A DNA stretch of 64,000 bases, taken from IMG/VR virus record IMGVR_UViG_3300037089_000505, positions 79,948 through 143,947 of that record; one strand, given 5' to 3'. Every line of letters begins with the position of its first letter. The first letter of the stretch is position 1. The stretch comes from a virus. Positions 17,038 through 63,414 of the stretch are shown piece by piece. Both the position numbers and the translations under genes were made by a program. The notes beneath the pieces were generated by a model, which was given only the letters and a program-made list of their open reading frames with translations, did no database searches and was not told where the DNA came from.

Positions 17038-17616
17038 ATGGAACTCTTGAAATTCATCGACACCAATTCTGATTGGAAAGAAAAAATCCAAGCCGAACCT
17101 TTTTGTGTCAAGGTTGAGGAAGACGAACACTACGTCCTTCTGAAATACGATCAGATTCATTCTGACTTCAATATTCCCATGGTTCGGGAATGTCGGGGTA
17201 TCATCCTTACCAAAGACACTCATGAAGTGGTTTGCCATCCCTTCGACAAATTCGGCAACTATGGTGAGGGATACTGCCCAGAGATAGACTGGGCTACTGC
17301 TCGAGTTCAGTCCAAAATCGATGGCTGCTGTGATGCCGATGTTAAACTCATTACCAAAACCGGTGAAAAGGCTATAAAAGAAATCGTTGAGGGCGAAGAA
17401 GTCCTCACTTTCAATTTCGAAAAAGACCAACCAGAATTTAATGTTGTAAAGGCAACTTCCAAAAAATTCAACAACAACGATTGGTATGAAATAGAACTAG
17501 AAAATGACCAGAAAATAAAACTGACTGGTAATCATCGTGTTTGGGTAGAAAATCTGAAATGTTATCGCCAAGTAAAAGATCTGAAAGGCGATGAGGAGGA
17601 GGTTAAATTTATATGA
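17038..17616 (+). CDS. T4 Rnl1-like RNA ligase N-extein (96 aa) fused to split-intein N-fragment (96 aa, from 17326)
   Basis: RECRGIIL and PFDKFGNYGE, then KIDG|CCDAD (intein block A) and KLTGNHRVW (block B TxxH); ends without a C-terminal splice junction. Confidence 0.9.
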   Translation: MELLKFIDTNSDWKEKIQAEPFCVKVEEDEHYVLLKYDQIHSDFNIPMVRECRGIILTKDTHEVVCHPFDKFGNYGEGYCPEIDWATARVQSKIDGCCDADVKLITKTGEKAIKEIVEGEEVLTFNFEKDQPEFNVVKATSKKFNNNDWYEIELENDQKIKLTGNHRVWVENLKCYRQVKDLKGDEEEVKFI

Positions 17617-18037: not shown

Positions 18038-19060
18038 ATGAGAAATATAAAAGAAAGTGTTTGTGTTTGCGGACAAAAAATTACAAACATATCAGCGATA
18101 AATCATAAAAGACATTGCCCGGTCTTTTTAAAATACCGTGATAAGTGTCTCACTAAAGAATTTATTCAAAAAGAATATATTGAAAAGGGTCGGTCTTTAG
18201 AAGAAATACACAGAGAGCTTTCGATCCCAAGAAAATATATTGAAAGCAAAGTTTTAGAGTTTGGTTTCCAATTAAGAAACATAAAACAATCTAAAGCAAC
18301 TCAATACACAAAGAACAAAACGATAGCGACTACTATTGATAGATACAGCGATGTAAATGTTTTGGGCAAGAATTCGCCAATTTACAATGAAAGAAATAAG
18401 ACAGTAAAGCAAAGGTATGGCGTAAATAACGTATTTCAGCTGGCTGCCGTGAAAGAACAAATCACCAATAGTCATCTTGAAAAATACGGCAAGAAAAGAA
18501 TTACTAATGGACAAAAAATATCAACAACGAGAAAAGAAAAATTTAAAGCAGGCGAATATAAATATTTCAGTAGAGCAATGTCAGAGACAGCCAAAAGCAC
18601 TTATAATAAATTAAGCGAAAAAGAAAAAGTAGACAAAATGGTTCATATGAGAAAGTTTATAGACGTGAATTCTTTTATGTCAAGACCAGAAGAGAAAGTG
18701 GCGTTGATATTAACAGAGCTTAAGATTGAATTTCAACATACACTTTTCATAGGTCCATTTTCTTACGATTTTCATATCAAACATACGCCCGTAGTAATTG
18801 AAGTTCAAGGAGATTATTGGCACGCTTCCCCAGACAGATATGAAGCTAAAGATTTACTTAGCAGACCGGGTAATAAGCTTGTTGAAGCTCAAGAGATATG
18901 GGTCAAAGATGCGGCTAAGAGGGCATACATCGAAAAATATGGATACAAAGTTTTTTACATTTGGGAACACGAACTCAAAGATTTGAAGAGTATCGAAGGT
19001 AGGTTAATATCTCTGTATGAAGAGCATAAAAATAAAAAGCATCAAGAAGATTACAAATAA
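18038..19060 (+). CDS. free-standing Vsr/DUF559-like homing endonuclease
   Basis: SRPE...YDF...VIEVQGDYWH...KD..K...GYKVFYIWE; KYG/RYGV repeats; sits between split-intein halves. Confidence 0.85.
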   Translation: MRNIKESVCVCGQKITNISAINHKRHCPVFLKYRDKCLTKEFIQKEYIEKGRSLEEIHRELSIPRKYIESKVLEFGFQLRNIKQSKATQYTKNKTIATTIDRYSDVNVLGKNSPIYNERNKTVKQRYGVNNVFQLAAVKEQITNSHLEKYGKKRITNGQKISTTRKEKFKAGEYKYFSRAMSETAKSTYNKLSEKEKVDKMVHMRKFIDVNSFMSRPEEKVALILTELKIEFQHTLFIGPFSYDFHIKHTPVVIEVQGDYWHASPDRYEAKDLLSRPGNKLVEAQEIWVKDAAKRAYIEKYGYKVFYIWEHELKDLKSIEGRLISLYEEHKNKKHQEDYK

Positions 19061-19910
19061 CTCGAAGAGATATGATGTCCAAACTGACAACGGCAATTTC
19101 TTCGCGAATAATATCCTCGTCCACAACTCTCTCATCAAGGTTTGGTACCATAACTTCTGGCACGTCTCTTCCAACGGTATGATCGACGCTGGGTCTTGCG
19201 ATCTCTCTCTTCCGTTCGGAAGCTACAAGACGCTCGGCGATCTTTTCAGCCAGGCCTTTTTCTTCAAACACAAGAAGAGCTTGAATGATCTCAACAAGAA
19301 CTACACCTATATGTTCGAGCTCATCAGCCCCTACAATCGGGTAGTCATTCCTTACACCGAGATTGACATTTACCATATCGGCACCAGGGAAACGAAGACT
19401 GGAATAGAGCTTATCATTGATATCGGAATTCAGAGACCGAAAGAATTCAATCTTCATACTCTGGATGATGTAATCGCCGCGGCAAAAGTCCTCCCCTTCA
19501 ATGATGAAGGCTACGTGGTGGTTGACGGAAAATGGAATAGAGCGAAGATCAAGTCGCCAGCTTATGTCGCCGTCCATCATCTCAGGGGCGAAGGCAATCT
19601 TTCCTACAAGCGAGTCCTGGTCTTGATCATGTCCAATGAACATACTGAGTTTCTGAACTACTTCCCTGAGTATGTTGAAGTATTCGGTCAGGTAGAAAAG
19701 AAGTATAAAGACTACGTCGAGAAACTCCTTCAGTCTGCAACTGACGCAATTCAGTATAAGAGCTTGCCTCGAAAAGAATATGCCATGTGGGCAACCAAAC
19801 AGGTTGAGCCGGCCTTTCTTTTCCAACTCCTTGATGGAAGGATCAAGACGGCTGAGGAATACTTGGAACAGGTCGGGCCCGAAAAGGTTGCCAAGAAGTT
19901 GGGATACTAA
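19017..19910 (+). CDS. split-intein C-fragment (37 aa, 19017-19127) fused to RNA ligase C-extein (260 aa)
   Basis: basic MKSIKIKSIKK, YDVQT.NGNFFANNILVHN|S; then TYMFELISPYNRVVIPY, EGYVVVD and KIKSPAY ligase motifs. Confidence 0.9.
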   Translation: MKSIKIKSIKKITNNSKRYDVQTDNGNFFANNILVHNSLIKVWYHNFWHVSSNGMIDAGSCDLSLPFGSYKTLGDLFSQAFFFKHKKSLNDLNKNYTYMFELISPYNRVVIPYTEIDIYHIGTRETKTGIELIIDIGIQRPKEFNLHTLDDVIAAAKVLPFNDEGYVVVDGKWNRAKIKSPAYVAVHHLRGEGNLSYKRVLVLIMSNEHTEFLNYFPEYVEVFGQVEKKYKDYVEKLLQSATDAIQYKSLPRKEYAMWATKQVEPAFLFQLLDGRIKTAEEYLEQVGPEKVAKKLGY

Positions 19911-21636: not shown

Positions 21637-22377
21637 CATATATTAAACACATGGCTATTACATTAGGCATCATTGCTATACTCTATTTAGCAGGTGGCAT
21701 CACTTTCGGTATGATCTTTGATCGTGAAGCCGAAAACTTTTGCGACCTCTTCGAAGGCACTGCTGGTCGTTTCATGAATTGGATTTTCTGGGCTCATAAC
21801 GGTGGCACCTATTTGGTCTTCATCGGACTTGCTACTATGATATGGCCCATCTCGGCTATACTCACAGCTATTTGTTATTTCAGAGCATAGGAGAAAACAA
21901 TGATTGCTATCGTTATTTTGGCTACAATCATCTATCTCTTTATCGGCTTTGTTGGAGTCATCTACTTGAACGAGGAAGAAATTCTTGACGGTGTCATCGA
22001 CGATGAAGACAGCGTCTTTTCTTGGATTTTGAGCTGGCTCATCTATACGACTCCGATCATCAAGTGGGCTTTCTATTTTTTACTTGCTTTGATCTGGCCT
22101 ATCGGAGCTGTGGTGGCGGCAATCATTTATCTGTCATACATCGTCTAAGGAGATCAAATGGACGACCTAATCAAAGCTCTTCAAATCATGCGGAAGTATT
22201 GTAAAAACGAATACGCTCCGTGTTCTTGTGAACACGATATTCTCTACGTCAATTGCGTGGATCCCGCTAACGTTTCTGAGGAAGACATAAAGGCACTCGA
22301 TGAATTGGGGTTCAGTCCGAATTCTTCTTGGCCAGCATTCTATTCTTTCAGATTCGGATCCTGCTAAGGAAAAACAT

Positions 22378-23682
22378 ATGGAACTTAAAGGAAAATACGC
22401 TAACGCAATCGTCTACAACGACTTAGTCGAGGCTACCTGTATCTCGCAGATTCTTGGCCTGTTAAACCATCCTCTGTCTGAAAACTCCAACCCTCGCTTC
22501 ATGCCAGATTTGCACGCGGGAAAAGGCTGTGTCATCGGCTATACTGCTATTCTTCCGCCTGATGGAAAGGTAGTTCCTAACCTCATCGGTGTAGATAAGG
22601 GATGTGGCGTCTATACCATTTGCCTTGGATTCTTGGCCGATATCGGCGAAAAGTTTGACAAGCTTGACAGGTTCATTCGCAACGAAATTCCTTCCGGGTT
22701 CAAGAGCAACGAACGAACCAATCAGGATCTGGAGGAAATTTTCCGAAAGGGACTTGCGAGCAATGGTCTTTATGCAAACATCCGTGATTTCGATGTCGCC
22801 CTTAAGGAAGTGTGCAAGCGTCAGGATCAGAGCTATGATGCGGTAATGAGACAGATTGGAACTCTCGGCGGTGGAAATCACTTCATTGAAGTTGGACTCG
22901 ACGAAGAGAATCGTCTTTGGCTGACGATCCACTCTGGCTCGAGACACTTCGGAAACATCAGCTGTCTCTTCCATCAGAAAAAGGCACAGAACAAATACCT
23001 CGGTCTCGATGATGAAACCTTCCGAGCAAAGGTGGAGGAAATCAAACGGACCAAGCACGGTAAAGGTATTGAAGCAGCAATTCAGAGACTCCGTTCAGAA
23101 GCCCGGAAGGGTGGCAAGAAACCCAACGGTCTTGAGTGGTTAGAGGGCAAAGATCGCGAAACTTACATTCACGACTTGAAAGTTGCTCAGTTGTATGCAA
23201 AACTCAATCGCCATACGATGGCCTACGCTATTGTGAACGGCTTCTACAAGCTGGACATTTTCAGCCTGAAGAGAATTGAGTCTGTCCACAACTACATCAA
23301 CTTCGAAGATAACATCGTTCGAAAGGGCGCGATCTCTGCTCATATCGGAGAAGAGGTTGTCATTCCCTTCAACATGAGAGACGGTTTGATCATTGGAATT
23401 GGAAAAGGAAATCCTGACTGGAACTTTTCTGCACCGCACGGGTCTGGAAGGAAGATGTCTCGTTCGGCCGCAAAAGGCCTGGACCTTGCTCATTTCGAGA
23501 AAGTTATGAAGGATGCGGGTATCTGGTCTACTTCAATAGGTAAAGACACACTCGATGAATCGCCCATGGCCTACAAGAACACTGAAGACATTGTGGCTCT
23601 TTTAGGGCCGACTGTAGAAATTAAGCATCGCGTGAAGCCAATCTACAATTTCAAGTCTGGCAAAGAAGAGGAAAGAGAATAA
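22378..23682 (+). CDS. rtcB: RtcB family RNA-splicing ligase
   Basis: MPDLHAGKG, GVDKGCG, GTLGGGNHFIE, HSGSR, HNY..VRKGA, SAPHGSGR and DESPMAYK. Confidence 0.95.
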   Translation: MELKGKYANAIVYNDLVEATCISQILGLLNHPLSENSNPRFMPDLHAGKGCVIGYTAILPPDGKVVPNLIGVDKGCGVYTICLGFLADIGEKFDKLDRFIRNEIPSGFKSNERTNQDLEEIFRKGLASNGLYANIRDFDVALKEVCKRQDQSYDAVMRQIGTLGGGNHFIEVGLDEENRLWLTIHSGSRHFGNISCLFHQKKAQNKYLGLDDETFRAKVEEIKRTKHGKGIEAAIQRLRSEARKGGKKPNGLEWLEGKDRETYIHDLKVAQLYAKLNRHTMAYAIVNGFYKLDIFSLKRIESVHNYINFEDNIVRKGAISAHIGEEVVIPFNMRDGLIIGIGKGNPDWNFSAPHGSGRKMSRSAAKGLDLAHFEKVMKDAGIWSTSIGKDTLDESPMAYKNTEDIVALLGPTVEIKHRVKPIYNFKSGKEEERE

Positions 23683-39138: not shown

Positions 39139-39211
39139 GCCGGCTTAGCTTATTTGGCAAAGCGCCTGATCCGTAATCAGGAGAGGCCCGGTTCGAGCCC
39201 GGGAGTCGGCT
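39139..39211 (+). tRNA. tRNA-Thr(CGT), C33
   Basis: GCCGGCT/AGTCGGC acceptor; CCTGA-TC CGT AA-TCAGG; TTCGAG T-loop. Confidence 0.88.
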
Positions 39212-40848: not shown

Positions 40849-40920
40849 GCCGGCGTAGCTCAATGGCAGAGCGGTACCTTTGTAAGGTAAGGGTTGGGGG
40901 TTCAAGTCCCTCCGTCGGCT
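40849..40920 (+). tRNA. tRNA-Thr(TGT)
   Basis: GCCGGCG/CGTCGGC; TACC-TT TGT AA-GGTA; TTCAAGT T-loop. Confidence 0.88.
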
Positions 40921-41001: not shown

Positions 41002-41610
41002 ATGAGAAAATTATTTCTTGTTTTGTTTTTATTCGTAGCTGCTCTTTCATTTGCTAATAAGAGCTGGTATGTAGATCAGAATGGAACTGGCATAGGAAAC
41101 TGTGGACCGGCAACGGTAGCTATGATGATTTCTTATACAGAACACGTTCGCATTCCAGTACAAGTAATTCGGGAAGAGATAGGATATACAAGAGATGATG
41201 GCAGTACAGATCTTGAAGAGTTATCAGGTGTTCTTGAGCGTCATAAAATTCGTTATTCTAAAACAGAAATAAAGACGAAGGTTGATTTGGATGAGCTTTT
41301 GGAAACTCATCACATAGTTTTAGTTGACGTAGATATGAGCTATATCCCTAATAAGAGCAACTATGATAAAGGTCACTACTTGATTCTGTCTAGCTATAGT
41401 GAAGGGACTTATGAGGCTCAAGATCCTCTTAATGGATCTGATGTTCATTACAACGCTGATGCAATATGGTCAGCTATGAAAACGAGAGAAGTACTTGTAA
41501 CTGGTAATGGAAGACTGCCACTAGTAGGTTTTGGATTTATTACCCAAATACTATTAGTCATCGACATTAGTGCTATCGTAGTTCCGAAGAAAATTATTTT
41601 GCCGTGTTAG
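41002..41610 (+). CDS. secreted C39-like cysteine peptidase
   Basis: signal peptide; Q....NCGPATVAM, GHYLIL and QDP. Confidence 0.75.
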   Translation: MRKLFLVLFLFVAALSFANKSWYVDQNGTGIGNCGPATVAMMISYTEHVRIPVQVIREEIGYTRDDGSTDLEELSGVLERHKIRYSKTEIKTKVDLDELLETHHIVLVDVDMSYIPNKSNYDKGHYLILSSYSEGTYEAQDPLNGSDVHYNADAIWSAMKTREVLVTGNGRLPLVGFGFITQILLVIDISAIVVPKKIILPC

Positions 41611-41702
41611 CTCAGTTGGTAGCAGCGTTTCCTTGGAGAATGCTTTTTTAAGAGAGCACTGTCCTAAGGAAAAGGTCCCCAGTTCAATTCTGGGACACGG
41701 CT
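41601..41702 (+). tRNA. tRNA, probably Thr(GGT), with a 28-nt insert in the anticodon loop
   Basis: GCCGTGT/ACACGGC-T acceptor like the other Thr tRNAs; TTTCC/GGAAA stem encloses 35 nt instead of 7. Confidence 0.75.
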
Positions 41703-41893
41703 CTCGTCTCGACACATAGACGCATGGGTAAAACTCGAGTCAAGACCCAAGTATTCTAAAGTCTAATAGAGCAGCTTTCTAGAAAGCTATCGAGTACTTA
41801 ATTAGACATTAGCTGAACGATATCGCATTGCGATAGTAGGCGAAGTATTCAATGGCAAAGCGGTAAAGGTGCGACAGCCGGGAGAGACCGGCT
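41703..41893 (+). ncRNA. candidate structured non-coding RNA
   Basis: successive stems CGTCT/AGACG, TGGGT/ACCCA, GTCTAAT/ATTAGAC, TATCGC/GCGATA and AGCCGG/CCGGCT. Confidence 0.5.
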
Positions 41894-41946
41894 TTATTTG
41901 GAATCATTGCTCGTTGAGCAAAAGTAATATTTATAGAGGAGTTAAA

Positions 41947-43143
41947 ATGAAAAGATTCAAGAATCTGTTCTTGTTTTTGGCTGTTCTTGTATTAGCGTCA
42001 GCTAGTGCTTGGGCGATGCCAGCGGCAGGTAAGACTCTTACCATCGGATTGGTACTGGTCGGACCTTACAATGATCTAGGATGGAGTCAGGCAAATTATG
42101 ATGGCGTTCAATACGTCGTCAAGAATGTTCCTGGAGTTCAGTTCATTTATATTGACAAGGCTAATCCAGCAGACAGGCCGGGAACGACAGTGTCTCAACT
42201 AGCTGAAAGTTTGGTTGCAAAGGGCGCGAAGCTAATTATCTTCAGCTCAGATGATATGGGTGATGAGGCAGTTAAGTTTGCTACAGCGCATCCTGATATT
42301 TTCGTTGTTATGACTTCTGGTAGCCAGGTATGGAATGCTGGAAAAACCTATCAGAACCTACCGAACATGATTAACATCATGGGTCGTATGGAATTTGGCA
42401 AGATGATCGCAGGAGTTGCCGCCGCCATGACGACAAAGACTGGTAAAATTGGTTACCTCGGACCACTTATCAATGATGAAACGAGGCGATTGTGTTCTTC
42501 AGTATATCTTGGAGCCAAGTACGCTTGGACAAATTACTTGAAGAAAGATGCTGCTAAGCTTCAATTCAAGGTAACTTGGATTGGATTCTGGTTTAACATT
42601 CCGGGTATCACTTCAGATCCCTCACAAGTGGCCGATGCATTTTTCAATGATGGTTACGACGTGGTAGTTTCTGGTATTGATACTAGCGAAGTTGTTACAG
42701 AGGCAGCAAAGTTTACGGCTCAAGGCAAGAAAGTTTTCGCAATTCCTTACGATTACTCAAGCGCCTTCGCCGCTTCACCTGAGGTTAATTTGGGCGTTCC
42801 TTATTTTAATTGGGGTCCTGCTTATGTAGTAGCTGCAAAAGCTGCAATGGGTGGTTCTTGGGTTTCCCACTTTGAGTGGAACTCCCCCGACTGGAAGAAT
42901 GTTAACAACCCTGATACATCAGCGGTTGGTTTCAACAAGGGCAAGGCACTTTCACCTAAGGCTTCGGCTGCAGTTGATAAGTTTCTTTCCGAACTTGCAT
43001 CAGGACTTAACCTATGGAAAGGTCCTATGAAGCTTCAAGATGGTAAGACCTACTTGGTCGATGACCAGAAGGCAACAGATCAGCAGATCTGGTATTTGCC
43101 TCAACTCTTGGAAAATATGCAAGGACAGAGCGTTTCGAAGTAG
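41947..43143 (+). CDS. BMP-family ABC transporter substrate-binding protein
   Basis: signal peptide; GPYNDLGWSQA, AG.AAAMTTKTGKIGYLG, WIGFWF and FNWGPAY. Confidence 0.88.
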   Translation: MKRFKNLFLFLAVLVLASASAWAMPAAGKTLTIGLVLVGPYNDLGWSQANYDGVQYVVKNVPGVQFIYIDKANPADRPGTTVSQLAESLVAKGAKLIIFSSDDMGDEAVKFATAHPDIFVVMTSGSQVWNAGKTYQNLPNMINIMGRMEFGKMIAGVAAAMTTKTGKIGYLGPLINDETRRLCSSVYLGAKYAWTNYLKKDAAKLQFKVTWIGFWFNIPGITSDPSQVADAFFNDGYDVVVSGIDTSEVVTEAAKFTAQGKKVFAIPYDYSSAFAASPEVNLGVPYFNWGPAYVVAAKAAMGGSWVSHFEWNSPDWKNVNNPDTSAVGFNKGKALSPKASAAVDKFLSELASGLNLWKGPMKLQDGKTYLVDDQKATDQQIWYLPQLLENMQGQSVSK

Positions 43144-43340: not shown

Positions 43341-43354
43341 AAAGAAAGGGAAAC

Positions 43355-43771
43355 ATGGAACTAATAATTTCAATCGGTCTCCCCGGCTCTGGCAAATCTA
43401 CTTACTATCGCACAGCGCTTGCGAAAAGTCACACACAAATCTCCAAGGATCTAATGAGCGGCTCTCCAACTAGAAAAAATCAGATTCAGATTGACATGAT
43501 TACTCAATCTCTAACTAAAGGATTGAATGCAGTAATCGACAATACTAGTGTCACAGCTGAAGTTCGGAGGCCTTTAATTGAGCTCGGCCACAAACTTGGC
43601 GCAAAGGTAATTGCGTATTACTTTCCGACTTCAGTCAAAGATTGTATTGCTCGCAATGCTCAGCGAACGGGTAGGGCTAAAGTACCAAATGTGGCTATCT
43701 ACACTATGGCAAAGAAGCTTCAAGGGCCAACAAAAGCTGAAGGCTTTGACGACATAATTACGATCAATTGA
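43355..43771 (+). CDS. P-loop polynucleotide kinase-like (AAA_33) protein
   Basis: GLPGSGKST, ISKD, VIDNT....R, C.ARN..R...VP and P...EGFD. Confidence 0.85.
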   Translation: MELIISIGLPGSGKSTYYRTALAKSHTQISKDLMSGSPTRKNQIQIDMITQSLTKGLNAVIDNTSVTAEVRRPLIELGHKLGAKVIAYYFPTSVKDCIARNAQRTGRAKVPNVAIYTMAKKLQGPTKAEGFDDIITIN

Positions 43772-57415: not shown

Positions 57416-57541
57416 GGGAGTGTAGCTTAGAGTGCATAGTAAGGGCGCTACAGCATTGATCACACTACTGTAGAAGAGCTACTATGACGGCAGAGCGGTC
57501 TCTAACCGGGGCGAACGCTGGTTCGAATCCAGCCACTTCCG
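57416..57541 (+). ncRNA. tRNA-like RNA with a 56-nt D-loop insert and a non-canonical anticodon arm
   Basis: GGGAGTG/CACTTCC-G acceptor (G3.U70); GCTGG-TTCGAAT-CCAGC; GCTT/GAGC D-stem; insert stems CATAGTA/TACTATG and CTACAG/CTGTAG. Confidence 0.7.
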
Positions 57542-61138: not shown

Positions 61139-61786
61139 ATGATTGAGTATCCATCAATAATCAATAGTTCAAAAGCTCCACGTAAGCCAATGATAGCTTT
61201 TGAAAAAATCGATGGCAGCAATATCCGCATTAAATGGACACACAAAAGGGGCTTTGACCTTTTTGGTAGCCGGCAACAGTTGCTTGACTCTAGTCATCCT
61301 AGTCTGGGCGGAGTAGTCCAGATCTTCAACGAGCGCTACAAAGATGCTCTTGAGGAAACTTTCAGACATGAGTATGGGAAAGAGAATGAGATCATTGTCT
61401 TCGGCGAATACTTTGGACCCAGCTCTTTCGCCGGAATACATAGCGATCCAATTTCAGCAATGAATTTCTATCTGTTTGATATCCTTTTTGTAAAAAAGAG
61501 CTACACAGAATTTCTTTTGCCACAAGATCTCGTCAAGATCTTCCCCAAATTCGAAAGATTTGGGATGCCTGTACCAAGAGTTGTCTATGAGGGGAACCTC
61601 ACTGATGATTTTATCAGACGGGTCCGCGAAAATGAATTCAATTTGAATGAGGGCGTCGTCTGCAAAGGCACTCAACGTCTTGGATCTTTCCGTGGCAAAG
61701 TCTGGATGTGCAAAATCAAAACGAACGCCTATCTTCAACGTCTCAAAACTAGATTCCAGGAGGACTGGAACAAGTATTACGAATAG
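61139..61786 (+). CDS. RNA ligase (Rnl2-like nucleotidyltransferase domain)
   Basis: YPSI, EKIDGSN, FGEYFG, F.LFDI, EGVVCK and KIKT. Confidence 0.85.
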   Translation: MIEYPSIINSSKAPRKPMIAFEKIDGSNIRIKWTHKRGFDLFGSRQQLLDSSHPSLGGVVQIFNERYKDALEETFRHEYGKENEIIVFGEYFGPSSFAGIHSDPISAMNFYLFDILFVKKSYTEFLLPQDLVKIFPKFERFGMPVPRVVYEGNLTDDFIRRVRENEFNLNEGVVCKGTQRLGSFRGKVWMCKIKTNAYLQRLKTRFQEDWNKYYE

Positions 61787-62800: not shown

Positions 62801-63361
62801 ATGATTTGCGAAAATTGCAGCAAAGATTTCTCTGAAGATTGGCGAATAGGTAAAAAGAGAGGACTATTACGGTTCTGCTCTTCACGATGTGCAAAGCGTC
62901 GAAAACAAACTGATGCGATTAGAGAGGCAAAAAGTAAAGCTAGCAAAGCTGCTTGGAAAAGAGGTGTCTATAAAAATCAATACAATCACACTTTTTCAAA
63001 AGCAGACAGAAAAAAGGGCATTGATACTTGTATAGAAAAAGCTAAAACAAGAAACGCAGAACTATTAGCCACTCATCAATATGAAAAAATGAGCAATGAG
63101 GTTAGAAGACGATTTATCCTCGACGAAGTTAATCATGCCTGTGAGTCATGTCATAATTCAGAGTGGCTTGGAAAACCAATATGGTTAGAAATACATCACA
63201 AGGATGATGATAATACGAACAATAAACGCGACAATCTTTTAGTTCTTTGTCCAAATTGTCATTCAGCAATAGATGAGAAATATAGGTTTAGAGGGCGAAG
63301 TAGAAAAAAGACCGAAAGTAGCTCAGTTTGGCTTAGAGCATCTGCCTTATCGGAAGCATAG
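62801..63361 (+). CDS. HNH homing endonuclease
   Basis: FCS..C, CESC...W...I.LEIHHKD....NN..DNL..LCPNCHS; 3' end runs into tRNA-Ile. Confidence 0.88.
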   Translation: MICENCSKDFSEDWRIGKKRGLLRFCSSRCAKRRKQTDAIREAKSKASKAAWKRGVYKNQYNHTFSKADRKKGIDTCIEKAKTRNAELLATHQYEKMSNEVRRRFILDEVNHACESCHNSEWLGKPIWLEIHHKDDDNTNNKRDNLLVLCPNCHSAIDEKYRFRGRSRKKTESSSVWLRASALSEA

Positions 63362-63414
63362 GTTGAGTGCTTCAGATAAGCAGGGGGTCGGTGGTTCAAA
63401 TCCACCCTTTCGGA
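63312..63414 (+). tRNA. tRNA-Ile (TAT or GAT) with a 27-nt insert in the anticodon loop
   Basis: CCGAAAG/CTTTCGG-A; TCTGC/GCAGG encloses 34 nt: CT TAT...GAT AA. Confidence 0.78.

Follow-up and report, generated by a model that had tools for sequence, protein, structure and literature searches.

To our knowledge, the only introns known in the transfer RNA (tRNA) genes of bacteria and their viruses are self-splicing group I introns. Protein-catalysed tRNA splicing is regarded, as far as we know, as an archaeal and eukaryotic trait and has not been demonstrated in bacteria or their viruses. Group I introns occur in the anticodon loops of bacterial and phage tRNAs and are often mobilised by homing endonucleases, some of which are free-standing; SegB of phage T4 is reportedly a free-standing homing endonuclease in a tRNA cluster. 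The tRNA introns of the Lak megaphages have been termed 'enigmatic', and the part of that paper on which we draw gives no mechanism for them (Devoto et al. 2019, PMC6784885). According to the same part of the source, two Lak inserts (Tyr and Phe; Table S6) are 79-93 nucleotides (nt) long with an internal T-arm-like sequence, and one Lak Thr intron is predicted to encode a tRNA (PMC6784885). A 2026 survey noted tRNA introns in 262 jumbo-phage genomes and gave no mechanism (PMC13037316). Here we describe a tRNA-Thr gene (positions 41601-41702, plus strand) in the last 64 kb of the IMG/VR virus record IMGVR_UViG_3300037089_000505, whose anticodon is split by a 28-nt hairpin. We call this 64,000-nt stretch, at its full length, the window, and the interrupted gene the target.

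Anticodon loops and hairpins are also handled by proteins in better-known settings. During T4 infection PrrC cuts the host tRNA-Lys, and Pnkp and Rnl1 heal and seal the anticodon loop. RNase III processes hairpins such as the R1.1 site of phage T7. In archaea, introns at non-canonical tRNA positions are cut by EndA at a bulge-helix-bulge and sealed by RtcB (PMC4090602).

A tRNA-Thr(GGU) gene interrupted within its anticodon

The target is 102 nt long and all its tRNA parts are complete: the acceptor GCCGTGT/ACACGGC with U73, the D arm, the T arm CCCAG/CTGGG and the variable loop AGGTC. Its anticodon stem TTTCC/GGAAA encloses TT GG[28 nt]T AA. The gene and the two other Thr genes of the phage are laid out as follows.

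41601..41636 (+), exon 1 of tRNA-Thr(GGU): acceptor 5' strand, D arm, anticodon-stem 5' strand and loop positions 32-35 (TTGG), from the Rfam alignment and a gap-free alignment to uninterrupted Thr(GGU)
41637..41664 (+), 28-nt hairpin insert, the putative mini-intron, between anticodon positions 35 and 36, from a clean 28-column alignment gap and the rod fold
41665..41702 (+), exon 2: U36, A37, A38, anticodon-stem 3' strand, variable loop AGGTC, T arm, acceptor 3' strand and U73, from Rfam and the alignment
39139..39211 (+), tRNA-Thr(CGU), uninterrupted, with GCCG.../...CGGC and U73 as in the target
40849..40920 (+), tRNA-Thr(UGU), uninterrupted, with the same acceptor signature

When a short stretch is scanned, Infernal aligns the target to positions 1-71 of RF00005 with 48.1 bits (gathering score 29, E 2.4e-9), and the extra bases form one insertion confined to the anticodon loop. 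ARAGORN calls the gene with a 28-nt intron if introns are allowed. Default ARAGORN missed it, and so did two larger Rfam scans. This is a filter effect: Rfam scans of at least 28 kb, with default or permissive filters, skip this 48-bit tRNA. Since default ARAGORN and large Rfam scans both miss such genes, they go unannotated, and routine annotation probably under-counts interrupted phage tRNAs.

A metagenome scan with a D-arm 20-mer, which turned out to be generic, returned 119 tRNA genes but no orthologue of the target. Ten of these are uninterrupted tRNA-Thr(GGU) genes (four distinct sequences) with the same D arm, AGGTC variable loop and U73 as the target. We aligned the target with these four sequences and with the Thr(CGU) and Thr(UGU) genes of the phage itself. 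The alignment contains a single clean 28-column gap in the target, between TTGG and TAA. The joined exons are 73-81% identical to the four uninterrupted genes without any gap, and ARAGORN reads them as Thr(ggt). One placement of a 28-nt deletion, and no other, yields the loop TTGGTAA. Hence the insert lies between anticodon positions 35 and 36 (41637-41664). The spliced junction would join TTTCCTTGG to TAAGGAAA, giving TTTCCTTGGTAAGGAAA, and the two unspliced boundaries are CCTTGGAGAATG and CTGTCCTAAGGA.

The initial annotation had placed the insert at 35/36 with anticodon GGT and had called the acceptor Thr-type. Both proposals hold, as 35/36 is the only register with a Thr anticodon and as G1-C72, C2-G71 and U73 are common to the target and the phage's Thr(CGU) and Thr(UGU). 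We are almost certain that the locus is a real interrupted Thr(GGU) gene. Other identities were tried and rejected. The Ser(GGA) label, which ARAGORN gives in a forced canonical 37/38 register, does not fit a Thr-type body that lacks a long variable arm; bacterial tRNA-Ser has a long variable arm and never a variable loop of 5 nt, so the target, with 5 nt, is not tRNA-Ser. An Arg(CCU) register is at odds with the Thr-type body and with U at position 20, the E. coli tRNA-Arg identity element being A20. Nor is the insert a repeated palindromic element, as its 28-mer occurs once in the 144-kb record.

The source is a large, uncultured tailed phage of a bacterium, from a peat site. The record is 143,947 bp long with a CheckV completeness of 63%, and the window is its final 64 kb. 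Its proteins include a tail sheath, a DNA polymerase and UvsX-, SbcCD- and DnaB-like proteins. The host is taken to be bacterial because the record, with at least 18 tRNA genes, has a transfer-messenger RNA (tmRNA) gene and a long-arm tRNA-Tyr of bacterial type. The densely packed open reading frames (ORFs) read well in the standard code. Among Thr codons, ACT makes up 40% and ACC 17%. The target is the only Thr(GGU) gene in the record, and a GGU tRNA reads ACU and ACC. Thus a working copy would serve the phage's commonest Thr codons, which together amount to 57% and have no second GGU tRNA. The gene is on the coding strand, within a unit closed by the following element.

41876..41893 (+), terminator-like hairpin with T run that ends the transcription unit holding the target, from a consensus scan

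A predicted rod and its recurrence in huge phages

In the predicted fold the anticodon stem, prolonged by the insert, becomes a rod of about 20 bp. The pairs 32:38 and 33:37 are followed by a bulged U36 and then by G34:C(i-1), G35:C(i-2) and A(i1):U(i-3). Above these, an A-U pair is flanked by a G-G mismatch below and an A-C mismatch above, and the rod ends in a 7-bp hairpin, UGCUUUU/GAGAGCA, closed by UUAA. Predicted pair probabilities in the rod are 0.8-1.0. The whole RNA is predicted to fold at -41.4 kcal/mol (z = -4.3 against shuffles), and when the insert alone is shuffled, 10 of 1000 sequences yield an equally stable anticodon arm. The helices UGCUUUU/GAGAGCA and GGA/UCC had been sketched in the initial annotation and are recovered. 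The sketch differs in one detail: UU/AA and GGA/UCC pair with U36 bulged between them, and an A-U pair between two mismatches follows. The further claim that the insert hides the anticodon agrees with the prediction. Because the anticodon is fully buried in this rod, the unspliced 102-nt RNA, if folded as modelled, would be unable to decode.

The junction is set by homology, with the 5' cut after G35 and the 3' cut before U36, while intron base i1 pairs with i-3. On the predicted fold, excision would therefore release a hairpin whose 3' end overhangs by 2 nt, and would leave the 5' exon with a 2-nt overhang of its own. Among eight possible registers, only the one fixed by homology has this geometry in the minimum free energy (MFE) fold. 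The cuts would fall halfway along the rod: 9 bp (5+2+2) lie below them and 9-11 above (11 steps, two of them mismatched). With about two turns of double-stranded RNA and a stagger that leaves 2-nt 3' overhangs, the modelled rod has the features of an RNase III substrate. The geometry of the cuts thus suggests the shape of an RNase III site and its product.

The same design recurs. We sampled the family with exact-match patterns, and all counts from the IMG/VR scans refer to the matches listed. A pattern combining the common D arm with 15-45 extra bases before the T loop gave at least 118 matches, among which 62 interrupted anticodon arms were parsed, 60 of them distinct. Many of these 60 resemble tRNAs of eukaryotic giant viruses, and several lie in dense phage tRNA arrays of bacterial type. 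A Thr-specific pattern matched four contigs (L194, L261, L262 and L245). With the second interrupted tRNA of the target's own phage, the relevant genes are these.

63312..63414 (+), second interrupted tRNA of the phage: Ile, 27-nt hairpin insert, same rod design
L194 (342 kb) and L261 (246 kb), identical tRNA-Thr(UGU) genes with a 42-nt insert
L262 (490 kb, rated 100% complete), tRNA-Thr(UGU) with a 33-nt insert
L245, tRNA-Thr with a 22-nt insert

The target, L194 and L262 share the exact register: 32:38, 33:37, bulged U36, 34:i-1, 35:i-2, i1:i-3 and then 9-11 steps. Their insert sequences are unrelated; their pairing register is the same. The 34:i-1 pair is G-C, U-G and U-A, tracking the anticodon, and the pairs of the upper helix show compensatory changes on both sides. 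The 2-nt stagger also holds in L262, where the register is unique for a Thr anticodon, and it is allowed in L194. In the tRNA-Ile of the target's own phage a register with the 2-nt overhang is allowed and gives the anticodon UAU. As a general rule the stagger is not supported: only 10 of the 60 interrupted viral arms listed have such a register with a plausible loop.

Within reach of the patterns used, the design is confined to huge phages. Among 185,579 bacterial and archaeal species genomes, the pattern gave 20 hits and none is a hairpin insert; they are either ordinary tRNAs that owe the hit to a chance match downstream, or tRNAs whose anticodon arm is duplicated. Two bacterial tRNA-Thr genes illustrate such duplications, each having two anticodon arms as a result. 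In L286:1212-1269 (uncultured Clostridiales RUG758) the anticodon arm is tandemly repeated, and in L277:3930-3999 (Acidobacteriaceae SbA1) the repeated part begins with the anticodon arm and extends into the T arm. In 50,697 phage records we found no similar interrupted tRNA, and none of the 190 cultured-phage matches spans the insert.

The inserts are associated with a subfamily of HNH endonucleases. Only ten ORFs of the phage have tblastn matches in both other phages of the same design, and one of them is an HNH gene that abuts the interrupted tRNA-Ile.

62801..63361 (+), HNH endonuclease gene, abutting the interrupted tRNA-Ile
Further copies of the subfamily: G006:C1:70585-70779; G008:C1:68359-68553, 331818-332099 and 335635-335850; L245:8072-8194

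The 342-kb phage has a single homologue, at a distance of 79 nt from the one interrupted tRNA of that phage. Of the three homologues in the 490-kb phage, two stand beside interrupted tRNAs (Thr and Lys), and the copy in L245 is 46 nt from the interrupted Thr. Overall, an interrupted tRNA neighbours 6 of the 10 copies, where 1.5 would be expected from the slots between tRNAs (Poisson-binomial P ~0.001, in a post hoc test). The same subfamily is also present in arrays without an interrupted tRNA. We looked for an HNH gene or remnant adjoining the target and found none; under the HNH linkage the target would hence be an orphan copy. The association suggests that the inserts travel with a homing-type endonuclease, or protect against it, as group I introns do, and the subfamily may be a homing endonuclease coupled to mini-introns.

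Other interrupted tRNAs turned up in the same scans. Two metagenome contigs (L073:1705-1800 and L118:1575-1672) carry related tRNAs with the target's D arm and AT-rich inserts of 20-22 nt in the anticodon loop; the inserts are flanked by repeated CTTAT, and ARAGORN labels these genes Ile(tat). About nine IMG/VR contigs (L168, L177, L181, L206, L207, L235, L241, L246 and L248) share a tRNA with a short variable arm, the loop TTGTAA...CTAAAC and a two-hairpin insert of 39-40 nt. The short-arm, Tyr-like body of this family suggests viruses of eukaryotes or archaea rather than phages. Elsewhere, interrupted tRNAs stand side by side in arrays: Lys with 48 nt at G008:C1:68156-68280, Arg(UCU) and Lys with 30 and 31 nt at L240:1811-2036, and Ile, Lys and Asn with 14-29 nt at L172:1588-2701. 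Most of these read codons starting with A.

The neighbourhood of the target has few relatives. Its DNA has no match in the 50,697 phage records. The ORF upstream (41002-41610, plus strand) resembles a C39-like peptidase weakly (22 bits, below the cut-off), and its TAG stop falls within the first ten bases of the tRNA; no relatives were found for it in IMG/VR. The Bmp-like protein downstream has relatives only in unrelated small phages, with no tRNA nearby. For the tail sheath a single relative turned up, and it is weak. The phage has a third unusual tRNA-like gene at 57416-57541 (plus strand; 126 nt, Rfam 33.8 bits). Its acceptor and T arm are good, and an insertion, 68 bases in the Rfam alignment, separates its D and T arms. 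The MFE fold puts much of this insertion into a hairpin within the D-arm region, and a possible anticodon arm has a loop of only 5 nt (CGGUC-UCUAA-CCGGG).

Candidate enzymes and competing readings

A functional tRNA made from the target would mean that a cut-and-rejoin pathway exists in the infected bacteria, as a 28-nt hairpin cannot splice itself. The phage encodes several enzymes that might take part in such a pathway.

22300..23682 (+), RtcB RNA ligase, which joins 3'-phosphate or 2',3'-cyclic-phosphate ends to 5'-OH (PF01139, 192.9 bits)
61139..61786 (+), PF09414 RNA ligase of the nucleotidyltransferase type (59.7 bits)
17038..17616 (+), N-terminal fragment of a T4 Rnl1-type ligase with the N-part of an intein, candidate sealing enzyme (PF09511, 23 bits, below the cut-off, and Intein_splicing/Hint)
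19017..19910 (+), ORF with an intein C-terminal motif (Pfam Intein_splicing, weak), taken to be the C-terminal part of the split ligase
43349..43771 (+), P-loop kinase (AAA_33), candidate polynucleotide 5'-kinase, directly after two tRNA-Gln genes

The initial annotation had counted RtcB and two other RNA ligases in the window. RtcB and the PF09414 ligase stand, whereas the Rnl1-type enzyme is a weak match to an intein-bearing N-terminal fragment; Pfam detected no ligase homology in the ORF at 19017..19910. The comparison with the other phages puts this enzyme to the fore. Two phages with the same Thr design, which are 92% and 100% complete, each have a Rnl1-type ligase with a P-loop kinase (AAA_33) nearby, the 490-kb phage having its kinase as a fusion with a metallophosphoesterase. 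RtcB is present in the target's phage only. Since the Rnl1-type ligase and the kinase occur in all three and RtcB in one, the common enzyme is a T4-like Rnl1 system rather than RtcB. The known job of that system is to reseal a broken anticodon loop. AAA_33 kinases beside Rnl1-type ligases suggest the polynucleotide kinase of an RNA repair set. Because all three phages have the kinase, their enzymes fit either end chemistry.

On balance we lean towards a target that would be matured by protein cutting and rejoining, that is, towards a protein-spliced mini-intron; this reading draws on sequence comparison and the modelled fold. The sequences show the gene, its register, the recurrent design and the set of enzymes, along with a predicted fold; transcription, cleavage, ligation and the acting enzymes are what we infer. 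The precursor would be cut by proteins between G35 and A and between C and U36, and the exons would then be rejoined. Cleavage would fall to a double-strand-specific nuclease that leaves 5'-phosphate and 3'-OH ends. Host RNase III would be the simplest candidate, and the HNH nuclease of the tRNA arrays an outsider. The phage's ATP-dependent Rnl1-type ligase would do the sealing in the anticodon loop. The pairing of an RNase III-type cut with Rnl1-type sealing is the route that we favour, and we offer it tentatively. A route through 2',3'-cyclic-phosphate and 5'-OH ends, sealed by RtcB or by the kinase with Rnl1, seems quite unlikely, and we would be surprised if HNH were the RNA nuclease. It is conceivable, if speculative, that huge phages run their own protein-only tRNA splicing with a double-strand nuclease (host RNase III or HNH) and a Rnl1-type ligase, the introns spreading with free-standing HNH homing endonucleases.

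Several observations weigh against a protein-spliced mini-intron. The L245 insert is off by one nucleotide from the shared register, and in a Lys insert (L240) the 2-nt stagger is incompatible with a canonical loop. The three Thr inserts may share ancestry, in which case their common geometry does not amount to three independent trials. Exon patterns returned no orthologue of the target gene from IMG/VR. None of the three phage records has an RNase III gene, so that the host enzyme must be assumed, and the enzyme inventory also permits a heal-and-seal route and thus, as read from the sequences, does not choose between end chemistries. Finally, phage tRNAs are often dispensable, and an unspliced dead gene could persist.

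This last point leads to the first rival, a dead or dispensable gene. Here the hairpin would be an insertion at the DNA level in a non-essential tRNA gene, never removed from RNA and possibly blocking the target site of a homing endonuclease in tRNA arrays. The enrichment of the HNH subfamily beside interrupted tRNAs (6 of 10 against 1.5 expected) suggests such a mobile-DNA origin, and searches of the phage records for PF01974 and RNase III found no splicing endonuclease. Yet the exons are undamaged, with 48 bits and 73-81% identity to working Thr(GGU) genes. Bases of the insert pair with those of the anticodon, and from phage to phage the 34:i-1 pair changes along with the anticodon (GC, UG, UA), in keeping with selection on RNA structure. 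The rod register is kept despite unrelated insert sequences, and the target itself has neither an adjacent HNH gene nor a remnant of one. We regard a dead gene as unlikely, though by no means fanciful.

The unspliced RNA could also be the product, a tRNA-shaped decoy or sponge with a closed anticodon arm for a host defence nuclease that targets tRNAs, or for a tRNA-binding protein. There is precedent for phage tRNAs that counteract anticodon nucleases (eLife 2023, PMC10264068; Nature 2024, PMC11464382), the rod conceals the anticodon loop, and the phage is rich in RNA repair genes. A decoy, however, would be expected to show the loop that the nuclease recognises and not to bury it. Moreover, exact removal of the insert restores the canonical UUGGUAA loop of a needed isoacceptor, and the design is not tied to one isoacceptor but is found in Thr, Ile and Lys tRNAs. 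A decoy is therefore improbable.

Splicing of the archaeal or eukaryal type, with a bulge-helix-bulge cut by an EndA/TSEN-like endonuclease and sealed by RtcB, is largely refuted and retains next to no credence. RtcB is encoded in the window, and ARAGORN can force the canonical 37/38 register. But the relaxed bulge-helix-bulge that had been suggested as a check does not appear: in the 35/36 register the central 4-bp helix is impossible, U36 is the sole bulged base, and the splice sites fall within a continuous helix or beside it. The 37/38 register has three of the four central pairs, its distal helix is out of frame, and its product would be GGA without the long variable arm of bacterial tRNA-Ser. 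The search for a splicing endonuclease, likewise suggested at the outset, covered this record (63% complete) and the two phages of the same design (92% and 100% complete) and found PF01974 in none of them, while archaeal controls matched; those two phages also lack RtcB. The tmRNA and long-arm tRNA-Tyr point to a bacterial host.

A group I intron or other ribozyme is rejected, as the annotation had already argued from size: the catalytic core P3-P9 takes more than ~200 nt, the insert has 28, and an Rfam scan of 41500-41950 (E-value mode) finds tRNA only and no ribozyme family.

Comparison with known systems

How does a protein-spliced mini-intron compare with what has been described? Our literature searches turned up no account of short plain-hairpin inserts, of the 35/36 Thr design, of the RNase III-like geometry or of any connection with Rnl1 or HNH genes. 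The closest relatives by setting are the Lak introns, which are also inserted in the anticodon loop of tRNA genes of a very large phage and have no self-splicing fold. As far as the cited part of the Lak paper describes them, the target differs in its insert, a plain hairpin of 28 nt that prolongs the anticodon stem and splits the anticodon at 35/36, and in that its phage reads the standard code.

Archaeal introns show that a short, protein-spliced intron can sit inside the anticodon and pair with it, and this phage does encode RtcB. The target, in contrast, has no bulge-helix-bulge or EndA gene, belongs to a phage of a bacterial host and would be cut in a continuous helix with a 2-nt stagger.

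The enzymes resemble those of T4 repair, as a phage kinase and a Rnl1-type ligase form a gene pair common to all three phages with the same design. However, T4 mends damage at a single cut, whereas the target would need two cuts that remove 28 nt as routine maturation. With group I introns the target shares insertion in the anticodon loop, and its kind shares a statistical linkage to a homing-type HNH gene in tRNA arrays. Yet a group I core does not fit into 28 nt, and no intron family of Rfam matches. RNase III hairpins are imperfect rods of ~20 bp with mismatches, as in the target, where the deduced cuts would have the 2-nt 3'-overhang stagger and lie about one helical turn from each end. 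Known RNase III sites, however, separate RNAs or trim ends, and at none are the flanks religated to make a tRNA.

The recurrent rod and the 2-nt stagger turn the 'enigmatic' introns into a specific hypothesis, namely a cut by RNase III and ligation by Rnl1. The HNH link suggests a way in which such introns spread and a reason for which they might be retained, namely that they protect the phage's own tRNA genes. If the tRNA is made functional by cutting and rejoining, the widespread 'repair' ligases of phages (Rnl1 and RtcB) would gain a routine job in maturation. The pathway would then be a third kind of tRNA splicing after group I and EndA/TSEN, and the first protein-catalysed one in the bacterial domain.

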